From NCBI GenBank assembly GCA_016840085.1, contig JAEOTA010000085.1, positions 17,441 through 81,440 on the forward strand: a stretch of 64,000 nucleotides of DNA, written 5' to 3'. A program made the translations under genes and the position numbers. The notes beneath the pieces were generated by a model. It ran no database searches and had not been told where the DNA came from. It saw only the letters and a list, made by a program, of their open reading frames with translations. The DNA comes from Promethearchaeota archaeon (lineage in GTDB: Archaea; Asgardarchaeota; Lokiarchaeia; Sigyniarchaeales; SOKP01). Positions 3,365 through 20,201 of the stretch are shown one piece after another. Within the stretch, counting starts at the first letter, position 1, and each line of letters begins with the position of its first letter.

Positions 3365-4387
3365 GTGATGTATATGACTGTAAATTTTTTAGATTTAATG
3401 CATATTGAGATTACGGTTCCTGATGCTGAAGAAGCTTATCGAATTCTTCATAATGTTTTTGGTGCGGAAAAAGTCCAAGAGGAATTCGCAGGTTTTTTGG
3501 ATGGAGAATATAATAAAGTGATTCATGTTGGTCTTGGTGATGTAGTGCTGCAATTTATCGAACCCCTAGCAGAAGGAAGCTCTTGGGACATCCAACTGAA
3601 AACTAAAGGTCCTGGAGTTCATAATTTGACTTTTGGTGTAGAAAGTGCTGAAGAAACAGCGAATAAATTGGAAAAATTAGGAGGTATTAAGCCTCTATTT
3701 ACATTTGATCTAGAATGGGATAAAATGATTCCTTCTCAATTCCTAAAACCTGGAGTTAAGAAAGTATTTATGATGGATTCCATGGAAAAAATTGGATTTC
3801 ACTTAGAGTTCGGTGATAATCCTGTGAAAGAGGACATTAATGTATTTCCTCAAACTAAATACGTTACTGGGCATGACGAATTAATTGGGAACGTTTCACC
3901 AATGTTACACATTGAACTAGTAACCCCTGATTTAGAGAAAACATATGAGTTCTTACATAAAGTTTTTGGTTCAGAAAAAGTGGAAATCGAGTTTGCAAAT
4001 TTTTTAGATACTCCATTTATGCGTATCATGCATGTGAATTTAAGTAATGTTGTATTGCAGTATTGTCAGCCTATGGTTAAAGTAAAAACAGAAATGGGAA
4101 GTTGGTATAACCTTTTAGAAAAAAACGGGGCATACGTACACAACATAACTTTTGTTGTAGATGATCTTGATGATATTGTAGAAAAATTCAAAAAAGAGGG
4201 AATAAATCCTCTTTTCACGTTTGATCTACAATGGGAAAAGTTAAATGAGAATATTAAATCTAAGACAAAACCAGTACATATGATGAATACTCTTGAAAAG
4301 TTGGGTTTTCATATGGAACTTGGTGAAATAACAACAGACGAAGAACTTGAGGCTTTTTCAGAATTATTATACATAGATTTAAAGTAA
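3365..4387 (+). CDS. Tandem-domain VOC (glyoxalase/dioxygenase/epimerase-like) superfamily protein
   Basis: Two internal repeats: MHIEITVPDAEEAYRILHNVFGAEKVQEEFAGFLD and LHIELVTPDLEKTYEFLHKVFGSEKVEIEFANFLD. Each is followed by HNLTF/HNITF and FHLEFG/FHMELG. Confidence 0.65.
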   Translation: MMYMTVNFLDLMHIEITVPDAEEAYRILHNVFGAEKVQEEFAGFLDGEYNKVIHVGLGDVVLQFIEPLAEGSSWDIQLKTKGPGVHNLTFGVESAEETANKLEKLGGIKPLFTFDLEWDKMIPSQFLKPGVKKVFMMDSMEKIGFHLEFGDNPVKEDINVFPQTKYVTGHDELIGNVSPMLHIELVTPDLEKTYEFLHKVFGSEKVEIEFANFLDTPFMRIMHVNLSNVVLQYCQPMVKVKTEMGSWYNLLEKNGAYVHNITFVVDDLDDIVEKFKKEGINPLFTFDLQWEKLNENIKSKTKPVHMMNTLEKLGFHMELGEITTDEELEAFSELLYIDLK

Positions 4388-5809: not shown

Positions 5810-6262
5810 ATGCGAAGTGATTTAAAAAGAAAATTGGGAGGTATTTGCCTCATATGTGGGGGATTATTAATTATAATACCTCTAATAGTTATTATCAGCA
5901 ATATAATAGTAAATCCGACTATCCCTTGGGCAGATTTAGCAATTACTATCAATCTTTGGTTTATATTTTTTTGTGTCTTAATATTTATTCTTCCCGCAAT
6001 TTATTTAATATACACAAGTAGACCATCACCCACAGTAATATATAATGGGCCTGCTCTAGCTTGGTTCGTTACTATTATTATTTTGACATTAATTTGCATT
6101 GTAATTATTACCTTAGCAGGAGGAACAGTAGCTAGGTCTTCTCAGGGTATAGATTTTACAACTTTTTTCTATGGAAATTTTGGATACTGCCTTGGATTAG
6201 GATTTATCTTTTGTTTTTTAGTTATTTGTTTTGGCTTAATTACTGCTAAGTTAAACCATTAA
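5810..6262 (+). CDS. Hypothetical polytopic membrane protein
   Basis: 150 aa, about 4 hydrophobic helices. No family recognised. Confidence 0.5.
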   Translation: MRSDLKRKLGGICLICGGLLIIIPLIVIISNIIVNPTIPWADLAITINLWFIFFCVLIFILPAIYLIYTSRPSPTVIYNGPALAWFVTIIILTLICIVIITLAGGTVARSSQGIDFTTFFYGNFGYCLGLGFIFCFLVICFGLITAKLNH

Positions 6263-9467: not shown

Positions 9468-10352
9468 ATGAAATTAGAACCTGAATGCATAGGATGTTTG
9501 TTTGATCAAATTTTAAATGCATTGAAATTACTTAAACCAGATATCTCTCGCGAAAACGTTATATTTGCCCAAAAAAAGTTCATAAATTCTTTAATGGATA
9601 TAGACATAGAAAATAAAGCTGCTCCAATTTTAGGAAAAGTTGTTTATTCTATAGTAGCAGATGTATTAGGGGAACAAGATCCATATCATTCTTTAAAACA
9701 AAAATACAATCGTCTTGCATTGCAATATTATGATGATGTCATGAAAATTATTGAGAGTTCAGAAGATCCATTGTTTGAAGCGATATTCGTGGCAGCTCTT
9801 GGAAATACTATTGATTTTGCTAGCCAACACGAAATAAATCTTATATCTGATATTAAAAACTTTAAAAAAGAAGATTTATTCATCAATGATTATACTAAAT
9901 TCAAGCAATCCCTTGATAAAACTAATCATCTTTTGATAATTGGAGATAATTCTGGAGAAATCGTATTTGATAAATTATTAATTACAACTATTAAGAAATT
10001 TTATCCAAAATTGCAAATAATATATTCAGTTAGAGGGGCACCAGTCGTAAATGATGCAACAATAGAAGATGCAAGATATATTGGTTTAACAGATTTAGTT
10101 CAAGTTGTAGAATCAGGTCCTATTCCGGGAGTAGATATAACAACATCTCCAAAAGAATTCAAAAAGCATTTTTATCAAAAAGGAGGTATTATTTTATCAA
10201 AAGGACAGGGAAATTTTGAATGTCTTTATGGAATGGAAATTCCAGATAAAGATTTATATTATTTATTAAAAGTAAAATGTAAATTAATGGAACGAATTTT
10301 TAATGCCAAGATTGGTGATTTAATTTTTAAAAAGAAAGTTAAGAATTTTTGA
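9468..10352 (+). CDS. DUF89/ARMT1-like damage-control phosphatase family protein
   Basis: N-terminal CIGCLFDQ, IGDNSGEIVFDKLL, SKGQGNFECL. Confidence 0.7.
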   Translation: MKLEPECIGCLFDQILNALKLLKPDISRENVIFAQKKFINSLMDIDIENKAAPILGKVVYSIVADVLGEQDPYHSLKQKYNRLALQYYDDVMKIIESSEDPLFEAIFVAALGNTIDFASQHEINLISDIKNFKKEDLFINDYTKFKQSLDKTNHLLIIGDNSGEIVFDKLLITTIKKFYPKLQIIYSVRGAPVVNDATIEDARYIGLTDLVQVVESGPIPGVDITTSPKEFKKHFYQKGGIILSKGQGNFECLYGMEIPDKDLYYLLKVKCKLMERIFNAKIGDLIFKKKVKNF

Positions 10353-11207
10353 TTATGATTTTTCTAATATTTCTCTTATTTTTTTAACTGTTTCTTTGAA
10401 TGCCTTAGCAGATTTACTTTCAGGGTACTTTAAAATAAAAGGTAAGCCTTGATCCCCTTGCTGACTCACTTCCGTTTCAAAGGGAATTTTGCCTAACAAT
10501 TGAACCTTGAAATCAGTTGCTGCTTTCTCTGCTCCACCAGGGGGATATAAATCGATATACTCTCCACAATGCGGACAATTAAAGCCTGACATATTTTCAA
10601 TTATACCAAGAACTTTCCTTTCCATTACCATTGCCATTTTTATTGTCTTTCGGGCATCCATTAAGGCTACTTCTTGTGGAGTAGTTATAACAACGACATT
10701 CTCATCAGGTATAAGTTGTAAAATATCTAAGGTCTCATCAGAAGTTCCTGGAGGTAAATCACATATCAAATAATCAAGTTCACCCCAAATTGCATCGCCA
10801 AGAAACTGTCTTACTGCACTCATCTTCATAGGTCCTCTCCAAATCACGGGATCATCTGAAGAAAGGGTTAAAAAAGCCATACTCATTACTTTTAGTCTCA
10901 AAGGACCATCAATAGGATAAAACCTTTTAGCTTCAGCATCAACTTTTGGTTTTAATTCAGGATCAACTCCTAGCATTTTAATAACATTGGGTCCGGTAAT
11001 ATCAACATCAAGAATTCCTACCCTTAGTCCTATACTTGCTAAACTCATAGCTAAGTTAACTGCTACAGTTGTTTTTCCAACTCCTCCTTTTCCTGAAATT
11101 ATTACTATTTTATGTTTTATCTGCTCCATATTTTTTTTTATGTTCTTTTCTCTCTCATCTACCATCATTTCTTTTAAGTTGATATCTGGTACGTTTTCTT
11201 CTGACAT
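10353..11207 (-). CDS. Mrp/NBP35/ApbC-type Fe-S cluster carrier ATPase
   Basis: Deviant Walker A ISGKGGVGKTTVAVNLA, CPHCGEYIDLY motif. Its stop abuts the stop of the convergent DUF89 gene. Confidence 0.9.
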   Translation of the reverse strand: MSEENVPDINLKEMMVDEREKNIKKNMEQIKHKIVIISGKGGVGKTTVAVNLAMSLASIGLRVGILDVDITGPNVIKMLGVDPELKPKVDAEAKRFYPIDGPLRLKVMSMAFLTLSSDDPVIWRGPMKMSAVRQFLGDAIWGELDYLICDLPPGTSDETLDILQLIPDENVVVITTPQEVALMDARKTIKMAMVMERKVLGIIENMSGFNCPHCGEYIDLYPPGGAEKAATDFKVQLLGKIPFETEVSQQGDQGLPFILKYPESKSAKAFKETVKKIREILEKS

Positions 11208-11976: not shown

Positions 11977-13275
11977 ATGAAAAGAATACCTTGTTCAGGC
12001 TGCTCTTTATTATGCGACGATATAATTATTAAAAGCGATGGAATTTTTATTGATGAGGTTGTAGGGGCATGTTTAAAAGGGAAAGAAAGGTTTGACCAAG
12101 TCACCGCAAAAAATCGTATTTTATCGCCTATGATTCGTAAAAATGGGAAATTAGTAAAGAGTTCTTGGGATGATGCAATCAGTAAAACAGTTGAAATTAT
12201 TAGTCAGTCATCCAATCCTTTATTGTATGGTTTTTCAACAAGTAGTTGTGAGGCACAATTTAAAGGAATTAAGTTGGCAAAGCTAATAAATGGCTTTATA
12301 GATTCAAATTCTACTATATGTCAAGGAAAAGTATTAAATACTTCAAAACAAACAGGGATTACATTAACAACAATTACCGAAGTCATAAATAAAGCGGATT
12401 TATTAATATTATGGGGAGCAAATGCAGCAGCATCTATTCCTCGCTTATTAAATAAGGTTCTTTTTTCAAGGGGAAAATTTAGGATGACGGGGCGTGAAAT
12501 AAAAACGTTAATAGTATTGGATCCAATGAAAACGGCTTCTTTTGGAGTTATGGGTGTCAGGGATATTGCTTTAAATATCGAACCAGAAAAAGATATTGAA
12601 CTAATTCAGGCTTTAAAGGAAGAATGTTGCACTGAAAAAAGTATTCCTGAAAGTGGGATAGCAGGTATAGATGCTAATGATTTAAAAAGATTATTACTTC
12701 ATTTAACTGGAACTGAATATGGAGTTATTTTTATAGGGCAAGGTTTATTAAAACCTCAATCAGGTTCTAATGTTATACAGGAATTATTAGAACTGGTTCA
12801 AATGATAAATGAAAAACAACAAAAAGGTCGTATTTCAGTCATATTGGTTGGAGGGCACTATAATATGATAGGATTTGAACACGTTGCATTATCAAGTTAT
12901 GGGAAAAATAGTAGTTTGCAATTTGTTAATAATCAACTAGCAGAAACCACCGATACTATTGTATTAAAAGTTGATAATGAAGATTTTGACAGTTCTTTAA
13001 TTGTAGGAACTGATCCTATTTCACACTTGCCAATTCAATTAAGTAAAAAATTAGCCGCAAAACCTTTAATATTGATTGATAATAAAAAATCGGCTACTTC
13101 TCAAATAGCTGATGTAATATTACCTTCAGCAATTACGGGTATAGAATGTGCGGGATTAGCTTATAGATTAGATCATGTTCCAATTGAATTACAAAAAATA
13201 ATAAATCCACCAAGCAGTGTCAAGACTGACGAAGAGATATTGGACCTGCTATTAGAAAAACTAAAAAACTCATAA
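11977..13275 (+). CDS. fwdB: Formylmethanofuran dehydrogenase subunit B (molybdopterin oxidoreductase family)
   Basis: 432 aa. N-terminal IPCSGCSLLCDDI is typical of FwdB/FmdB. Cys (STSSCEAQ) rather than an in-frame TGA. Followed by fwdD and fwdA. Confidence 0.8.
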   Translation: MKRIPCSGCSLLCDDIIIKSDGIFIDEVVGACLKGKERFDQVTAKNRILSPMIRKNGKLVKSSWDDAISKTVEIISQSSNPLLYGFSTSSCEAQFKGIKLAKLINGFIDSNSTICQGKVLNTSKQTGITLTTITEVINKADLLILWGANAAASIPRLLNKVLFSRGKFRMTGREIKTLIVLDPMKTASFGVMGVRDIALNIEPEKDIELIQALKEECCTEKSIPESGIAGIDANDLKRLLLHLTGTEYGVIFIGQGLLKPQSGSNVIQELLELVQMINEKQQKGRISVILVGGHYNMIGFEHVALSSYGKNSSLQFVNNQLAETTDTIVLKVDNEDFDSSLIVGTDPISHLPIQLSKKLAAKPLILIDNKKSATSQIADVILPSAITGIECAGLAYRLDHVPIELQKIINPPSSVKTDEEILDLLLEKLKNS

Positions 13276-13296
13276 GAGGCGGATATTTAGAAGAAA

Positions 13297-13665
13297 ATGT
13301 TGGTAAACACAGTAAGAATGGTTGATTATGATCAATTAAAGGAATTTACGATAGGAGATAATAACTCACTTAAAGAAAATTTGGCAATAGGCTTCTTTAA
13401 TCCAGAAGATATGAAAAAACTAAAATTAACAGAGAAATCAAGAGCAAAATTGAGTAGCAAATTTGGTAATGTTATAGTAAATGTTAAACAAGAAAAAGAT
13501 GTCCCTAAAGGGTTAATTCTAATACCTGTATCAATTTGGGCTAATCAAATAACTGGTGTAGAAAATGAAGAACTAATTTATAAGAATATTGAAGTAAACG
13601 TGGTATCAACCCAAGAACCTGTATTAAGTTTTGAAGATATTATTATTTCAATTAAAGGAAATTAA
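13297..13665 (+). CDS. fwdD: Formylmethanofuran dehydrogenase subunit D (molybdopterin dinucleotide-binding beta-barrel)
   Basis: 122 aa, with the right size and position between fwdB and fwdA. LILIPVSIWANQITG region. Confidence 0.65.
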   Translation: MLVNTVRMVDYDQLKEFTIGDNNSLKENLAIGFFNPEDMKKLKLTEKSRAKLSSKFGNVIVNVKQEKDVPKGLILIPVSIWANQITGVENEELIYKNIEVNVVSTQEPVLSFEDIIISIKGN

Positions 13666-13682
13666 ATATACTAAGATTAGAA

Positions 13683-15353
13683 ATGGTTAAATTAATTATT
13701 AAGAATGGATTGATTTTTGATCCCCTCAATAATATTGAAGGTGAGAAGAAGGATATCTTAATTGAGGACGAATTTATTGTAGAAAAATTTTCTAAAGAAA
13801 GTGATATAAAGGAAATTGATGCTAAGGGAAAAACTGTTATTCCTGCTGCCTTGGATATTCATACTCATTTTGCATCTCAACAAGTAAATTGGGCACGATT
13901 ACTTGGTACAGAAAATTCAACTTTCAAAAAAATATGGCAAGGTTTAACACTTGAAAAAATAGCTCAAGATTATATTAATAATGGCTATACTTTCATTCTT
14001 GAAGCGAACGTCTTCCCATCCTTATCAAAACAAACAATATTTGATTTTAATCATTTACCGGTTCTTGATAAGGGAATGTTATTAAATGTCAGTAATTTAT
14101 GGGCTTTAGAGTTAGAGTTTCAGAGAAGTAAAATAGATAACTTAAGTGTATTTTTATCCGATTTATTGCAAAAAACCAAAGCTTTTGGCATTAAAGTCTA
14201 TAATCCTTTTGAAGCTGAAGAATGGAATTTTAAAGAGATAAGAGAAGATGTTAAAAAATTAGGAAGACTCTATAATTTCTCAGCTTTAGATGTTTATGAG
14301 AACTTAACAAAAGCTAATGAGCGGTTAGGATTACCGCATTCAGTTCATGCCCATATTGAAGGCTATGAGACTAAATATGCAAAAGATAATTATGCAATCA
14401 TATTAGAAAGGATAAATTCTTTAGATATAGTCCCTAAATTAAAAAATAACTCTCAAACTTCGAGATCCCAAATTTTTCATCTTGCTCACGCTTCTGCTTA
14501 TAATATCGATGGAGATAATACTAAATTAATTGATATTATCAATCAATCTAATAAAATAGACATTGATATTGGATTTCTTACATTTAACAAAATCAATCCA
14601 TTAATCACTTCTGATAGAAAGTTAATTGAAAATGAAATAAAAATTGAAAATCAAAATAATATATTAATTAGATCCGCTGTAGAATTTGAAGGAGATTTAT
14701 TTGTAAAATTTAGAAATTTTGATAAGAATAATAAAGATCATTGCATATTGTGGGCAAATGGAATCAACCTCGCTCTAAATATTAAAAATAAGTGGAAAAT
14801 TCAACTTTCTCTTAACTATCCAAATTATGGTAATATAAACGATCTTGCTGAAGTTGCTACATGGCTATTAAGTAATGATGCAAGAATTAAATTTATGGAG
14901 AATATGACAAAAAATTTTATACCAGATGAATTTTTAACAGAGCCAGATAACAATTTATCATTTTATGAGTATATTATTTTAAGTCGAGCAAGTCCAGCTA
15001 AATCTCTTGGATTGGGACAAATTAAAGGAAATTTGGGAATTGGTGCTGATGGAGACGTTAATATTTTAGATATTGATCTACATAACATCGATACAGTTAA
15101 AGATTATGATGTAATCAAGAAATCGTTAAGTAATATTGAATATGTTATAAAATCTGGTGAAATTATAAAATATGGGGATAATTTAGATTTGTCACATCAA
15201 GGTAAGATTTTTTGGACAAGGGGCACTATAGAAAAAGAGGATAGATCAATTATTTTGAAACAAAAAAAGGATTTTTATCAAAAATATTATTCAATTTTCT
15301 ATGATTCTCTAATAACTTCAATTAATAATAAATTTTTAAGGTTAGTTGATTAG
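13683..15353 (+). CDS. fwdA: Formylmethanofuran dehydrogenase subunit A (amidohydrolase fold)
   Basis: 556 aa. IIKNGLIFDPLNNIEGEKKDILIED, IPAALDIHTHF, LPHSVHAHIEG, and C-terminal FYQKYYSIFYDS resembling FwdA KQYYSVNF. Confidence 0.85.
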   Translation: MVKLIIKNGLIFDPLNNIEGEKKDILIEDEFIVEKFSKESDIKEIDAKGKTVIPAALDIHTHFASQQVNWARLLGTENSTFKKIWQGLTLEKIAQDYINNGYTFILEANVFPSLSKQTIFDFNHLPVLDKGMLLNVSNLWALELEFQRSKIDNLSVFLSDLLQKTKAFGIKVYNPFEAEEWNFKEIREDVKKLGRLYNFSALDVYENLTKANERLGLPHSVHAHIEGYETKYAKDNYAIILERINSLDIVPKLKNNSQTSRSQIFHLAHASAYNIDGDNTKLIDIINQSNKIDIDIGFLTFNKINPLITSDRKLIENEIKIENQNNILIRSAVEFEGDLFVKFRNFDKNNKDHCILWANGINLALNIKNKWKIQLSLNYPNYGNINDLAEVATWLLSNDARIKFMENMTKNFIPDEFLTEPDNNLSFYEYIILSRASPAKSLGLGQIKGNLGIGADGDVNILDIDLHNIDTVKDYDVIKKSLSNIEYVIKSGEIIKYGDNLDLSHQGKIFWTRGTIEKEDRSIILKQKKDFYQKYYSIFYDSLITSINNKFLRLVD

Positions 15354-15462
15354 AATATAAAATTTGAAGTTATTATTCAAACCAATGATTTTTAATAGCA
15401 TGAAATTAAAAAAATTCAATGAAAAAAAAATCTGTTAAGAGAATTTTTAATCTTTCTTATTT

Positions 15463-16974
15463 CTAACCTATAGCGTGGTAGTGAAGCATAGAATGATGAT
15501 AATACCTTGGTGCTATAATATACGCTAAAGGTCTTCTCCTTATGTAAGTTTCTAAATCTTGTTCGAAAAAAGAGTATATGCTAAGATGTATCAAAGGATT
15601 TATTAAATATTTCCATTTATCCAGTTGCTCTTGTGAGATATTATTTTCAATCAATAATACATTGGGATTTAAACACATTAGAATAGCATATTCCATTAAT
15701 TCTGGAATAAATTTTGCACTTTGGGCTTTTAATATGTTTGATTGTGCTCGCAATAATACTCTCCACGTCTCTTCAGGGTCCCATGGAAATAATGAGGAGA
15801 TTGCTGAAAAGAATTTCGTACCTTCAGGTATATCTTCAATAATTTCATAAAAATAATTATAAGAGTCTAATTTAGTGGAAAATGCTAAAATTAACAATAC
15901 GAATATCATTTCTTCATCAATATTTTGCTTTAAATGTTGATAAAGAATTGTCTTCTTTCCGATCATTGGTAAATCTCTTTGAAAGTCTATGAAAATTCTA
16001 AGATTTTCATAATATTGCATAATTATATTTCTATTTACCTCATTTTTTGAACCCCATATTGTAAAAAATTTACCCAATAACGAGATCGCTGTTCTGATTT
16101 TATGAGTTGATATATTAGCATTATTAAGGATTTCATGAAATATTCTTTTATATTCATTTTCGGGATATTTATATTTAAATTCATTCTCAGTAATCTTTGC
16201 TTCATGATTATTCTTTGGAATCATATTTTCTGGATGGTTCATGAGATAAAATGATAAATTCATCATTCTTTTTTGTGCGTTATTGTAATTACGTTCACGT
16301 AGCGTAATAATATTCATAATTTTAGATAGATTTAGCATATTTGTATTAAGAAAGTATAAAGCCCATACCGGTGAGAACTTATTTGTTCTCATAATATTTC
16401 CAATACTGTCGATAAGCATGGTGAATGTGTCATCTAAATTCTTTAACACAATAATTAGCTCTTTTAATTCTCGAGAATAGAATCTCCTCCGAGCTTTTAT
16501 TTCATCAATAATTGTTTCACCTATGGGGGTAAGAAAAACTCTAATACCATTAACCTTAACGGCTCTTTCATAAGATTCAATTTCTCTATTAAGTTTTAAC
16601 AAATCGTTCTTCAATATTTTCAGATTAATTTCGTTATTTTCAATGAATTGACATAAATCAGATATGTCCTTTTTTAATGTTGCACCTCTTCCAATTTTTA
16701 AATAAGCAAAAAAGCGGGATATCGTTGATACATGATTATAATCACCCTCTAATGATACTAAATTTTGATAAGCTTGTCTTATATCATTAGATAACTTCAC
16801 ATACTTTCTTTTTAGACTTGTTATGTCTTTTTCTCTTGACGTCTTGGGGATTTTAGATTTGAATTCTGAAATAAGATGATTTTCTTTTAATTCAGAGATC
16901 TCTTCATATGATGTCAATATATCTTTTTTATCTTTTATAGAACTTAATATCTCTAACGCTCTCTCACATCTCAA
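15463..16974 (-). CDS. Hypothetical 503-aa protein, mostly helical with a coiled-coil N-terminus
   Basis: TTG start overlaps the TGA of the upstream gene (TTGA). No motif recognised. Confidence 0.6.
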   Translation of the reverse strand: MRCERALEILSSIKDKKDILTSYEEISELKENHLISEFKSKIPKTSREKDITSLKRKYVKLSNDIRQAYQNLVSLEGDYNHVSTISRFFAYLKIGRGATLKKDISDLCQFIENNEINLKILKNDLLKLNREIESYERAVKVNGIRVFLTPIGETIIDEIKARRRFYSRELKELIIVLKNLDDTFTMLIDSIGNIMRTNKFSPVWALYFLNTNMLNLSKIMNIITLRERNYNNAQKRMMNLSFYLMNHPENMIPKNNHEAKITENEFKYKYPENEYKRIFHEILNNANISTHKIRTAISLLGKFFTIWGSKNEVNRNIIMQYYENLRIFIDFQRDLPMIGKKTILYQHLKQNIDEEMIFVLLILAFSTKLDSYNYFYEIIEDIPEGTKFFSAISSLFPWDPEETWRVLLRAQSNILKAQSAKFIPELMEYAILMCLNPNVLLIENNISQEQLDKWKYLINPLIHLSIYSFFEQDLETYIRRRPLAYIIAPRYYHHSMLHYHAIG

Positions 16975-17954
16975 ACTTGATTCACCTTTTCTAAAATTGG
17001 TATTTCAACCGAGGGTAAATCCTTACCCTCTACTATAATTGTTAAATTTTCATTTATATTTTCTACATAAGTAAAAAAATCTTTATTTAAAGCTTCATAA
17101 ATAAGTAATGCTAGTTCTTCTCTTTGTTTTTGCCAAGAAATTTGACGTTCTTCCAATAAATGGCGATAAGAGTCGAGTTGAACTAAAGCATAGAGAAACT
17201 CATACACTAATTTCTGCCACTCTTTTTTCTGAGTCTCTTTATATTCATCCATAGGCACTTTTTTCCAAATAAATCCTTCAATATCTGCAAAATGTATTGT
17301 TCCATTCGGTGCTACTACACAATCCTTATCTAACCATACATCTTGATAAAATATACCTTTAATTTCGTTTCCTTCAATTATTGCTGATCGTGTATAAAGA
17401 GTTAAAAGCGCTATTCCACTTTTAATAAAATTCAATTCAAAATTCTCTGCCCTTTCTATGTTATCAATCTCAAATAACTGGAAAACTGAACTTGGATTAG
17501 CAATGACATGAGATGATTCAAAATACAAACGTACATTTGAAGGGAGTAGGCGTAGAACTTGATAAAAATGATCTTTATATGTTCTAAACCAAAAGAATTT
17601 CTTGGCCACTTCTTCGATTTCTTTTGGTAACTTAATAACTGCTACTGAGGGGCATATGTAAGCTCCATTAATAGAATCCAATTTAGCGATTCTAGAAAAT
17701 TTCAGTTCATCAAATCCATTTATAAAACCTTGAGCGCCATATGGACTTTCACCCATCCAAGATTCCCCCATTATGAATCCTAAACCAGTGGATAATGTTT
17801 CAATTTTACTTAGATGTTTTATATCTCGACATGCGTTTTTTATTTTACTCGGGTTCAATTTTCCTCCAAAAAACATATCCTCATAAGCACCACACCCTTT
17901 TACTGATAAATATACAATTTTTCCTCCAATTTCAATAAAGTTTTCTGGAATCAT
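16971..17954 (-). CDS. Hypothetical protein with a weak protein-kinase-like/PI3-4-kinase-like signature. The frame stays open 72 codons upstream, to 18185.
   Basis: IVYLSVKGCGAYED and WLDKDCVVAPNGTIHFADIEGF resemble a lysine strand plus a catalytic-loop/DFG-like segment. The upstream extension ...LPEEWYSAYLGPATAEFHGLNHKSQPAVRDENRNA has no ATG/GTG/TTG. Confidence 0.55.
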   Translation of the reverse strand: MIPENFIEIGGKIVYLSVKGCGAYEDMFFGGKLNPSKIKNACRDIKHLSKIETLSTGLGFIMGESWMGESPYGAQGFINGFDELKFSRIAKLDSINGAYICPSVAVIKLPKEIEEVAKKFFWFRTYKDHFYQVLRLLPSNVRLYFESSHVIANPSSVFQLFEIDNIERAENFELNFIKSGIALLTLYTRSAIIEGNEIKGIFYQDVWLDKDCVVAPNGTIHFADIEGFIWKKVPMDEYKETQKKEWQKLVYEFLYALVQLDSYRHLLEERQISWQKQREELALLIYEALNKDFFTYVENINENLTIIVEGKDLPSVEIPILEKVNQV

Positions 17955-18169
17955 TGCGTTTCTATTTTCATCTCTAACCGCTGGCTGTGATTTATGATTT
18001 AACCCATGAAACTCAGCAGTGGCTGGCCCTAAATAGGCAGAATACCATTCTTCCGGTAATTTAAATTGCTTATTAATTTCAATAGCCTCAGGTTCAATCT
18101 TGAATAAATTAAAATTAACAGAATTTAGTAATTTTTGATGATAAAGTGTATTGTAAGTTAAATTTTCAT

Positions 18170-19813
18170 TCAGTAGCGTCTCACCTTAACTTTAGGCATC
18201 TTTTTACCTAAAAGGTATATTGTACCTACTATTTGAGCATTATAATCATCATATATGTTTTTAGCGGGACTATTCCATTCAGCAATTTCCGTAATTGCTC
18301 GTGTACATCCTATTTCCTTGAGCGCTGAAAGTCGAGCTAATACAAGCATTCTTCCGATTCCATGATTTCTAAAAGCAGGATGGACGTAAAGACCATATAA
18401 CCATCCAGTTTCTTCTCCGGGAGTAGCAAAACCTACACCTAATATTATTTCATTAGCTATAGATTCTGGTTTAGGATAATTACTTTGAAATAAATCTGAC
18501 ATTATTGATTGAATCCAAGTTTCTGTTCTTAATGCAGTAGCTCCAACCGCTATATCATCCTCATAAGATTTAGTAACCCATTTTGCATATTTCTTGCTTT
18601 TTTTACCCCTATCTTCATTTGCGATCATTTTCATGATAGCATCTAAATGTTTCTCCTCAACAGGTTTTATATGAGCAGTATCAAAACTTAAATCTCTTTG
18701 CTGGAGATTATTAATTTCAAAGATATTATATTTCTCAATTGTGCGAAAACCCTTTAATCCTCTTCCACTTTCAGTAAATGCATATTTAACTTTAGTATAA
18801 TTTACCATATCCCATATGTGATTACCATAAAAGGTACCAACTTTCCCTTTTTGTTCAATAAATCCTATTCCTTCTACTACTCCATTACTATGAGCGCTGA
18901 TGATTTTTTTTTCATGAGATCTCGCTCTAACTAAATAGGAGGGTATCATTTCTGAATAAGCAGATTGTATTTCAAATTTAACAAAGTTAGGTAGATTTCT
19001 TTCAACGATAATTTCTATATCTCCTTTCGGAATTATCCTTGATTTCCAACGGAGGTTTTCATATATTACATAAAATAGAATCATAAAAAATAATATAGGA
19101 CCCCAGTAAGCTAAAAAGTACATTCCAAAATTAAAAGGTCTTAGATAACTAGAAGATGTAATGAAGACATAGGAATTTATTCTAAATTTTGACCAATGCC
19201 CTGTTTCTCCATCATATCCATCATCTACTTCTGTATAAATCTCTCCAATCAAATAACCATCTTTCGTAAAGAAATTATCTACTTCATATTTAGCATCAAA
19301 TTCTCCATACACATCATCTCGAGAATAGTAGCCCTCACTATGAAGTTTTTTTCCACTAAAAGGCATTAGATTTCCAACCCAAATAAGGTGTTCTCCACTG
19401 ATTACATCATATGAAGTATCGAGAATATCATATTGAGACGCTTTAATCCCTCCAGGAATATGAAACCAAACATTCATATCAGTAGTATTAAGGACATCTT
19501 GGTCAGTGCCCCATACATAAGCTCCATTAACTAGTGAATATGAAAACTCATAATTATCTACGCTTTTTTGGGAAGAACCATAGTAGTTTTCAGAAAATCT
19601 CCATGAAATCCGAGCGGTCACATTTGCATAATTTCCATTAAAATCAACAAGATAATGCCCTTTTGCTCTAAAAGTTTCTGTATATCCATCATACCAACCT
19701 CCTGTTCCTACCAAATCCCAATTATAGACATATTCGAATTCTAGGTCATGAGATGTAAATTTAATACCTAAATATGGCATCCCGAATAATTGAACAATAA
19801 CAGAAGTTATCAC
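18170..19813 (-). CDS. Membrane protein with a Tyr/Gly/Asp-rich N-terminal extracytoplasmic domain and a C-terminal GNAT acetyltransferase domain
   Basis: TM segment MYFLAYWGPILFFMILFYVIY. GNAT motif A YVHPAFRNHGIGRMLVLARL. Probable signal anchor encoded upstream of the listed GTG start. Confidence 0.7.
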   Translation of the reverse strand: MITSVIVQLFGMPYLGIKFTSHDLEFEYVYNWDLVGTGGWYDGYTETFRAKGHYLVDFNGNYANVTARISWRFSENYYGSSQKSVDNYEFSYSLVNGAYVWGTDQDVLNTTDMNVWFHIPGGIKASQYDILDTSYDVISGEHLIWVGNLMPFSGKKLHSEGYYSRDDVYGEFDAKYEVDNFFTKDGYLIGEIYTEVDDGYDGETGHWSKFRINSYVFITSSSYLRPFNFGMYFLAYWGPILFFMILFYVIYENLRWKSRIIPKGDIEIIVERNLPNFVKFEIQSAYSEMIPSYLVRARSHEKKIISAHSNGVVEGIGFIEQKGKVGTFYGNHIWDMVNYTKVKYAFTESGRGLKGFRTIEKYNIFEINNLQQRDLSFDTAHIKPVEEKHLDAIMKMIANEDRGKKSKKYAKWVTKSYEDDIAVGATALRTETWIQSIMSDLFQSNYPKPESIANEIILGVGFATPGEETGWLYGLYVHPAFRNHGIGRMLVLARLSALKEIGCTRAITEIAEWNSPAKNIYDDYNAQIVGTIYLLGKKMPKVKVRRY

Positions 19814-20201
19814 AAATATTACAATTAAAATTGTTCTCTTTCTTATAATTTTAAAACAACTCCTAAGGATATTAGATTACTTTTTGTAATATATTTAATG
19901 CATATCTTAATTTAAAATATGTTAATATTGAATTTCTTTTGAATTTAAATATAAAAATAAGCCTTTAAATATTCATATTAGATCAGGGGATTTTTATACA
20001 TTTACTATATTTATTTGTAATATTTTTAAGTAAAAAATCCTCTAATTTATGAATATTTCATACTAAATAAAAGAAAACTAACTAAATGTTTATTTTGAAG
20101 TTATAAATAAAGTTGATTGATTAAAAATTAGTTTAGGTAAATATTTTTTATTTTATATGATAAAATTTAATCGATAAAAAAGGAATTAAATTAGAAAAGG
20201 A

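Follow-up and report, generated by a model that had tools for sequence, protein, structure and literature searches.

Three consecutive genes on the minus strand of contig JAEOTA010000085.1 from a Promethearchaeota archaeon lie within a 64,000-nucleotide stretch that was analysed as a whole (hereafter the window). In the direction of transcription they encode a membrane protein ending in a GNAT acetyltransferase domain (g1), a protein of predicted kinase-like fold (g2) and a helical protein with a conserved C-terminal tail (g3). The long open reading frames (ORFs) in the window sequence span 18170–19876 (g1, 568 codons from stop to stop), 16971–18185 (g2, 404 codons from stop to stop) and 15463–16974 (g3, 503 residues). 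ORFs of 400–570 codons at 30% GC, each with 74–99 homologous clusters in its family, lie far beyond what chance would produce, and the three-gene set is a real, tightly coupled operon. The initial annotation had described three packed minus-strand genes with a TTGA overlap at 16971–16974, which is exact; the 16-nucleotide overlap that it placed at 18170–18185 exists only when the frames are read from stop to stop. The genes and their ribosome-binding signals are as follows.

18170–19849, minus strand: g1, probable start ATT at 19849–19847, stop TGA at 18172–18170
16971–18173, minus strand: g2, start CTG at 18173–18171, stop TGA at 16973–16971, 400 residues
15463–16974, minus strand: g3, start TTG at 16974–16972, stop TAG at 15465–15463, 503 residues
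19860–19865, minus strand: Shine–Dalgarno-like TAGGAG upstream of g1, read directly from the sequence
18181–18187, minus strand: Shine–Dalgarno AAGGTGA of g2, within the last g1 codons, 7 nucleotides upstream of the CTG
16982–16988, minus strand: Shine–Dalgarno AAGGTGA of g3, within the end of g2, 7 nucleotides upstream of the TTG

The search for g2 covered one genome per species and found relatives in 108 genomes, the best 80 of which entered the analysis of loci (designated L plus a number). These 80 comprise 35 Promethearchaeota (Asgard archaea, Loki-type) with g2 identities of 43–90%, together with about 45 Thermoplasmata/Methanomassiliicoccales and two metagenome-assembled genomes (MAGs) labelled Bathyarchaeia, at 32–39%. 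In all 30 Asgard loci whose sequence extends far enough, hidden Markov model searches placed g1 immediately upstream of g2, and in all 35 informative ones they placed g3 immediately downstream of g2; three loci in which g1 ends at 6013, abutting g2, were counted as linked. All informative related loci have the three genes together, and the genes are not orphans, as had been supposed, all three families being conserved across Asgard and Thermoplasmata archaea. The class labels Hermod-, Odin-, Thor-, Heimdall- and Hodarchaeota on DZ*/H3* MAGs, whose proteins are 78–85% identical to those of the window, are evidently unreliable and were not used for the Asgard distribution.

Two layouts occur in Thermoplasmata. 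The first is g1-g2-g3 as in Asgard; the second has g2, g3 and an ectodomain-transmembrane protein with a cytoplasmic zinc ribbon (CxxC...CxxC), while a separate two-domain GNAT gene of 277 residues stands on the opposite strand (L055, 7010–10428; also L047, L051, L053–L057, L059–L061 and others). In some MAGs the entire module is present twice, as diverged copies with about 85% and about 62% identity to the module of the window (L008/L018 of MAG Hel_238_bin13; ACFFCI_09180/85 and ACFFCI_20475/80; the g3 copies of ACFFKA), which suggests paralogy at the level of the module, or else mixing of bins. The trio is an undescribed module conserved in Loki-type Asgard and Thermoplasmata archaea. Its proteins appear in public records only as 'hypothetical protein' or 'GNAT family N-acetyltransferase', and the module is described neither in the literature found by full-text searches nor in Pfam, NCBIfam, PADLOC or the PDB, in agreement with the initial annotation. 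No known kind of system corresponds to it, though known folds are found in two of its parts.

Gene boundaries and start codons

Both junctions are YTGA overlaps of start and stop codons, with an AAGGTGA Shine–Dalgarno sequence 7 nucleotides upstream. At the g2/g3 junction the overlap is TTGA. At the g1/g2 junction, the mechanical ORF list puts the start of g2 at ATG 17954 (327 residues), upstream of which the frame stays open for 77 further codons with no ATG, GTG or TTG. Homologues of g2, at about 400 residues, span 99% of the 404-codon frame. The junction block AAGGTGAGAC(G)CTA[C/T]TGA is kept in 35 Loki-type loci (about 30 in one count), and in these 35 a conserved YTG overlaps the g1 stop TGA, 7 nucleotides after a perfect AAGGTGA. 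About half of the species have TTG here and the window, with some ten others, has CTG, the alternation at the one position spanning about 25 species; in the g1 frame the C/T difference is synonymous (TAC/TAT). Among the CTG species, the 72 codons downstream show ratios of nonsynonymous to synonymous substitution (dN/dS) of 0.08–0.4, and they encode both the invariant N74-R75 and, in the g2 model, the first strand of the N-lobe. Being under selection and holding these elements, the codons must be translated, and the start of g2 is therefore CTG 18173–18171, leaving a 4-nucleotide CTGA overlap with the g1 stop. The annotated ATG 17954 was rejected because it loses 73 conserved residues, including N74-R75 and strand β1.

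The window and six related species have no conserved canonical g1 start ahead of the first transmembrane helix; in L007–L009 and L013 the first canonical codon lies 85–133 codons inside the conserved ectodomain. The TAGGAG/TTAGGAGC sequence upstream of g1 is kept across this seven-species clade, and ATT 19849–19847 is present in all seven species, 10 nucleotides after TAGGAG. The ATG of more distant species aligns with ATA 19846–19844. The probable start of g1 is thus the ATT, with the ATA as an alternative; homologues of 557–560 residues match the ATT-started product end to end. Position 19876 is only the opening of the reading frame and not a start, and the annotated GTG 19813 was rejected as not conserved in the clade. 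The start of g3 is TTG in the window, ATG or GTG elsewhere and ACG in L025, in each case 7 nucleotides after AAGGTGA.

All three genes would then begin at non-AUG codons, namely AUU (or AUA) in g1, CUG in g2 and UUG in g3, the comparative data supporting the first two. On this reading the operon offers clean comparative evidence that Loki-type archaea initiate translation at CUG and at AUU/AUA behind strong Shine–Dalgarno sites. Current gene callers miss such starts, leaving proteins shortened in public databases; public calls in the clade of the window are too short for both g2 (301–353 residues) and g1 (435 or 547 residues).

Architecture of the three proteins

The product of g1 consists of a first transmembrane helix (TM1), an ectodomain of about 210 residues, a second transmembrane helix (TM2), a degenerate GNAT-like domain and a GNAT domain with an intact acetyl-CoA motif.

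19769–19837, minus strand: TM1 or signal anchor (RKR-TILIVIFVITSVIVQLFG), residues ~14–36, Kyte–Doolittle values up to 2.5 in 19-residue windows
19130–19768, minus strand: ectodomain, ~210 residues, rich in Tyr, Gly, Asp and Trp (alignment A2)
19058–19129, minus strand: TM2 (FGMYFLAYWGPILFFMILFYVIY), residues 250–273, followed by the basic segment ENLRWKSR
18632–19024, minus strand: cytoplasmic middle domain, ~130 residues between TM2 and the GNAT domain
18173–18631, minus strand: predicted catalytic GNAT domain, C-terminal ~150 residues (PF00583)

TM1 is present in all homologues in alignment A2, in which E67, D125 (in GTDQD), W137 and F138 (in NVWFHIP), E216 and many aromatic residues of the ectodomain are invariant. 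No Pfam or PDB match was found for the ectodomain, relaxed per-member Pfam scans of the family included. The C-terminus is a bona fide member of the GNAT superfamily judged by profile and by motif A, with predicted activity: it scores 41.3 bits against PF00583 (cut-off 20.7) and 30.7 against PF13508 (cut-off 27), and a GNAT match is obtained in 26 of 26 family members. Motif A (Q/R-x-x-G-x-G/A) reads R503-N-H-G506-I-G508, in which R503 and G508 are invariant and N504 and G506 conserved in at least 90% of sequences; N535 and Y542 are conserved as well. A profile search of PDB sequences gave SSAT2, RimI and Naa30 as the nearest relatives. The middle domain shows a weak resemblance to the C-terminal GNAT region (hhalign probability 68%, E = 4.8e-5) and is probably a degenerate GNAT-like domain. 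By the positive-inside rule, the N-terminus is predicted to be inside, the ectodomain outside and the GNAT domain inside, so that g1 would cross the membrane twice in the manner of a receptor and carry its double-GNAT module in the cytoplasm. The sensor-like layout first proposed is borne out; two hydrophobic helices flank the ectodomain, and the GNAT domain is C-terminal.

Sensor-fused protein acetyltransferases are known, such as the cAMP-regulated GNAT MtPat/Rv0998. They share with g1 a GNAT domain fused to a putative input domain, and the solved relatives of the g1 domain include the protein N-acetyltransferases RimI and Naa30. In g1, by contrast, the putative input would be extracytoplasmic and connected through two transmembrane helices, there is an additional degenerate GNAT-like domain and neither a cNMP nor an ACT domain occurs. 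No transmembrane GNAT 'receptor' is described in the Pfam and NCBIfam libraries searched.

The g2 family is small: it forms 99 clusters at 90% identity, and a search of 1.84 billion proteins yielded 127 representatives at 50% identity. Searches of Pfam, NCBIfam, PADLOC and the PDB by sequence gave no match for g2, including relaxed per-member scans. In particular, the window protein matched no protein-kinase-like family (Pkinase, APH, ChoK, RIO, ABC1, Kdo, PI3_PI4 and others) at E ≤ 1, no such profile matched any of 32 members at E ≤ 10 or any of 34 distant members at E ≤ 0.01, no Pfam domain was found in those 34 distant relatives and hmmsearch against the PDB was empty at E ≤ 10. An AlphaFold2 model from the family alignment has a mean predicted local distance difference (pLDDT) of 93.5 and a predicted template-modelling score (pTM) of 0.91. 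When this model was compared with the PDB using Foldseek, nearly all of the top 50 matches were kinase-fold proteins, among them the TGF-β-receptor kinases ALK5, ACVR1 and BMPR2, as well as ROP5, RNase L, CDK12, SidJ, Rv3197 and the NIS synthetases DesD, DfoC and IucC. SidJ and the NIS synthetases gave the highest query-normalised template-modelling (TM) scores (0.32–0.37; 0.29–0.37 for the NIS synthetases). Viral Ser/Thr kinases and APH-like and ChoK-like proteins came out on top in BFVD, an independent library, at E = 0.045 or weaker. Two segments carry the candidate active-site residues.

17898–17966, minus strand: N-lobe nucleotide-site candidates, invariant N74-R75 (β1–β2 turn) and K96-G-x-G-A (end of β3)
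17277–17342, minus strand: catalytic-loop and DFG-like segment, D282-x-W-x-D286-K-D288 ... G295 ... F299-x-D301-x-E303

Lys96, Asp286, Asp288 and Asp301 are invariant in alignment A1, and the Lys, both Gly and the Arg of the N-lobe motif are kept in distant relatives too. The model has N-lobe strands at residues 66–72, 76–86 and 89–96, so that Lys96 ends the last of them; D282-x-W-x-D286-K-D288 precedes a strand at 289–291 and D301-x-E303 follows one at 297–299. From this order and secondary-structure context, rather than from a residue-level superposition, K96, D286/D288 and D301 would correspond to the kinase motifs. Like the protein-kinase-like superfamily (SidJ, DesD/IucC/DfoC, APH/ChoK), g2 has a predicted bilobal fold, suggested by weak but consistent top matches in the PDB and BFVD, a Lys ending an N-lobe strand, and Asp-x-Asp and Asp-x-Glu before and after two short strands. 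Unlike it, g2 has the N74-R75 turn instead of a Gly-rich loop, KGxGA after the Lys, an extra N-terminal subdomain of about 65 residues, a C-terminal β-sheet and no sequence-profile match. The best reading of the model is a protein-kinase-like fold that is probably catalytically competent; with the full set of nucleotide- and Mg-site residues, g2 is most likely an active ATP-using transferase. Its chemistry may be phosphotransfer or adenylation. Resembling the kinases in fold and matching none of their sequence profiles, g2 is best classed as a new family with the protein-kinase-like fold. The two peptides on which a kinase likeness was originally based are present (residues 90–103 and 285–305) and contain family-invariant residues. 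The likeness is supported at the level of the fold, with K96, D286/D288 and D301 in the segments named, whereas that to PI3/PI4-kinases is not: there is no Pfam match, and neither PI3K nor PI4K is among the top 50 Foldseek matches.

Distant relatives of g2 have no consistent gene-context partners in the loci viewed and stand alone in varied archaeal contexts. In a single instance that was not found again (L087/L089; Logan SRR31012007 contig, genes at 3526–8602 of L089), two distant paralogues of 409 and 456 residues from an unidentified archaeon are arranged in tandem after two M16-family peptidase genes, a hint that the wider g2 family may act on peptides.

No family match was found for g3 in Pfam, NCBIfam or the PDB, and relaxed per-member Pfam scans returned only generic coiled-coil noise, consistent with the earlier remark that the protein has no recognisable motif. 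The AlphaFold2 model (alignment A4) is all-α with a pLDDT of 85: a coiled-coil hairpin (residues 44–137) is inserted in a small N-terminal domain, which is followed by a helical domain of about 300 residues. A Foldseek search with this model gave nothing meaningful (best E = 0.07); matches to the LSD1 tower and to Vipp1 were dismissed as reflecting only the coiled-coil hairpin. Two features stand out.

16564–16845, minus strand: antiparallel coiled-coil hairpin, helices 44–80/84–91 and 96–137, invariant K101 and K122 (alignment A4)
15466–15546, minus strand: C-terminal tail, Y477-IRR-R481-PLAYIIAPRYYHHSML-H498-Y-H500-AI-G503-COOH

No part of the protein is better conserved than the last 25 residues or so, with Y477, R481, H498, H500 and the terminal G503 invariant; residues 481–503 have a pLDDT below 50 and are predicted to be disordered. 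The ORF directly after g2 in Thermoplasmata is homologous to g3 (hhalign 98.2%, E = 5e-14, and 92%, E = 7e-7, for two subgroups, which match each other at 100%), and the columns most conserved across the phyla are concentrated in the C-terminal domain and tail. In 32 loci the Thermoplasmata homologue ends in HPxHxH-(3–12 residues)-Gly-COOH, and all homologues examined, whether Loki-type or from Thermoplasmata, have Gly as their last residue. Among Loki-type g3 proteins Cys3 hardly varies; of the two Thermoplasmata subgroups, one has this Cys and the other, with its MQTSK.../MESDR... N-termini, lacks it. We conclude that g3 is a new all-helical protein which, like the g1 ectodomain, fits no described family.

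Gene neighbourhood and possible roles

The GC content of the trio region (0.27–0.31, compared with 0.26–0.37 over the window) indicates native composition, and the window contains neither a second copy of g1, g2 or g3 nor any Rfam match. The neighbouring genes are metabolic: a molybdopterin oxidoreductase and an amidohydrolase, both of Fwd type, are accompanied by an acyl-CoA synthetase, by a trehalose synthase and by an ABC transporter for sugars. A FwdB/FwdD/FwdA-like cluster (11977–15353, plus strand) follows g3 directly in convergent orientation. This neighbourhood is unusually stable, the cluster being found convergent downstream of g3 in 16 Loki-type loci (L007, L008, L010, L015, L016, L019, L021, L022, L024, L025, L029, L031, L032, L034, L037 and L038), down to 53% FwdA identity. 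In these loci the identity of g2 (60–90%) is at least as high as that of FwdA (53–81%). The families of g2, g3 and the g1 ectodomain are unnamed in Pfam, NCBIfam, PADLOC and the PDB, yet conserved like a core carbon-metabolism enzyme in Loki-type Asgard. Just upstream of the Fwd-like cluster lie genes for an ARMT1-like damage-control phosphatase (9468–10352, plus strand; PF01937, E = 4e-54) and a NUBPL/Mrp-type iron–sulfur P-loop NTPase (10353–11207, minus strand; PF10609, E = 1e-91), an ordinary housekeeping context.

That the parts stay together although domain fusions differ is a pattern typical of one complex or of mutual action. We tentatively favour a membrane-anchored protein-modification or signalling complex in which g3 serves as scaffold, substrate or both. 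The vertically inherited, translationally coupled operon would produce a membrane-anchored enzyme complex, with the g1 ectodomain outside and both the GNAT-like and the catalytic GNAT domains facing the cytoplasm. The g3 tail (Y...R-P...HxH...Gly-COOH) would most likely dock into, or be modified by, g2 or the GNAT domain; g1, by acetylation, and g2, by phosphorylation or nucleotidylation, would act on g3 at the membrane, and the ectodomain may gate this activity. A parallel may be drawn with chemoreceptors, whose C-terminal pentapeptide NWETF recruits the modifying enzymes CheR and CheB: g3 likewise is a coiled-coil hairpin protein with a flexible, conserved extreme C-terminal peptide, a plausible docking site for co-encoded modification enzymes. 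The trio differs in that it has no MCP signalling domain, CheR, CheB, CheA or CheW, the membrane span is on the enzyme g1 and the tail sequence is unrelated, so that the comparison should be taken as an analogy only. The same caution would apply to the other systems that come closest, namely the sensor-fused acetyltransferases, AAC(6')-APH(2'') and the kinase-fold ligases, all of which are best regarded as functional analogies only.

Several observations weigh against this complex. The kinase fold is shared by adenylating ligases and by kinases of small molecules, and small molecules are acetylated by GNAT domains no less often than proteins are. The Foldseek matches of g2 in the PDB are weak (probability up to 0.97, best E = 4.5e-3, TM scores of 0.25–0.37), with no sequence profile tying the protein to any kinase family. 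Pfam and PDB sequence searches reveal no recognisable ligand-binding fold in the g1 ectodomain. No classical signalling output (helix-turn-helix domain, HisKA, MCP or response regulator) is linked; Pfam and NCBIfam scans found no HisKA/HATPase_c, MCPsignal or response-regulator domain in g1, g2 or g3. Of the two roles first suggested for the module, signalling is plausible; conflict is treated below. Asgard archaea are the lineage closest to eukaryotes, and a receptor-coupled modification system, if real, would represent a new signalling or anchoring principle in that lineage and a new functional branch of the kinase-fold superfamily.

A small-molecule or cell-envelope-precursor pathway is an alternative that we consider possible but doubtful. 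Here g2 would be a kinase of the APH/ChoK type whose substrate is a sugar, amine, lipid head-group or xenobiotic. At the membrane, that compound or a related one would undergo N-acetylation by g1, whose ectodomain would bind a surface glycan, and g3 would have an accessory, structural part. The viral Foldseek matches of g2 include APH-like and ChoK-like proteins, the nearest solved relative of the GNAT domain is a diamine acetyltransferase, and the ectodomain, rich in aromatic and acidic residues, may resemble carbohydrate-binding modules. The neighbouring acyl-CoA synthetase, trehalose synthase and sugar ABC transporter would suit such a pathway, but they are conserved only in the closest relative. 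Pairs of GNAT and kinase-fold enzymes acting on one small molecule do exist, as in AAC(6')-Ie/APH(2'')-Ia, in which, as in the trio, one genetic unit supplies both a GNAT and a phosphotransferase of kinase fold. That protein, however, is a soluble fusion acting on antibiotics, whereas the genes of the trio are separate, its GNAT is anchored in the membrane and bears an ectodomain, and a third, helical protein is obligatory. The NCBIfam AAC(6') scores of g1 (13–14 bits against cut-offs of 140–325) are about tenfold too low, and Pfam gives no signal for APH or ChoK. Moreover, such a pathway leaves unexplained the 500-residue g3, with its invariant disordered tail and its standing as the gene most tightly linked to g2.

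Two further proposals centre on the g3 tail. It is unlikely, though conceivable, that the module is a previously unknown archaeal system of protein-tail modification or conjugation, in which g2 acts on the HxH...Gly-COOH tail and is coupled to a transmembrane receptor-acetyltransferase; g2 would phosphorylate or nucleotidylate the tail, or activate the terminal Gly carboxylate in the manner of SidJ and NIS-type enzymes. Such conjugation would amount to a new envelope-to-cytoplasm signalling or anchoring device common to Asgard and Thermoplasmata. The narrower proposal, which we regard as improbable, is activation followed by ligation, with g2 adenylating the terminal Gly carboxylate of g3 as SidJ or the NIS synthetases do and the tail being moved to an amine, possibly by g1 as transferase. 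The terminal Gly is consistent with this scheme, as are the high ranks of SidJ, DesD, DfoC and IucC among the PDB matches with the highest query-normalised TM scores, and the PDB describes DfoC as a GNAT–NIS synthetase fusion. TM scores below 0.4, however, cannot separate subgroups of the kinase fold, no IucA_IucC or FhuF profile in Pfam matches g2, the invariant Gly could be a mere docking requirement and no acceptor is identifiable.

That the HxH tail (HPxHxH in Thermoplasmata) and Cys3 bind a metal, making g3 a metallochaperone or metal sensor regulated by g1 and g2, is very improbable: the His-x-His tail is kept in both phyla and Cys3 is nearly invariant in Loki-type g3, but this Cys is missing from one of the Thermoplasmata subgroups, no gene for a metal transporter or metalloenzyme accompanies the module consistently, and the Fwd synteny is convergent and confined to Loki-type archaea. 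A conflict system (antiviral defence or toxin–antitoxin) with a GNAT or HipA-like kinase toxin is hardly credible: toxins of both kinds exist and some MAGs hold module paralogues, but PADLOC-DB gave no match for g1, g2 or g3 at E ≤ 0.1, no small antitoxin-like partner accompanies g1, itself a membrane protein of 560 residues, and the native GC content, metabolic neighbours, stable Fwd synteny, conservation of g2 no lower than that of FwdA and strong purifying selection speak against a location in a defence island as well as against the conflict role considered in the initial annotation.

Flanking signals

Archaeal transcription termination uses oligo-T tracts, and two such runs downstream of g3 probably constitute the operon terminator.

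15408–15430, minus strand: two oligo-T runs (T7 and T9), 33–55 nucleotides after the g3 stop

A scan with bacterial promoter and terminator models gave counts equal to those of shuffled sequences and, the host being an archaeon, is uninformative. Directly after the g1 stop, a mini-ORF of three codons (ATG AAA ATT TAA; 18158–18169, minus strand) occupies the third frame and is probably incidental. Upstream of g1, the block GATATGCATTAAATATATTACAAAA (19880–19904, minus strand) is almost unchanged between the window and L007, L008 and L012 and contains a TATA-box-like TTAAATATA about 25 nucleotides ahead of TAGGAG, making it a candidate archaeal promoter, in which case the 5' leader would be very short.

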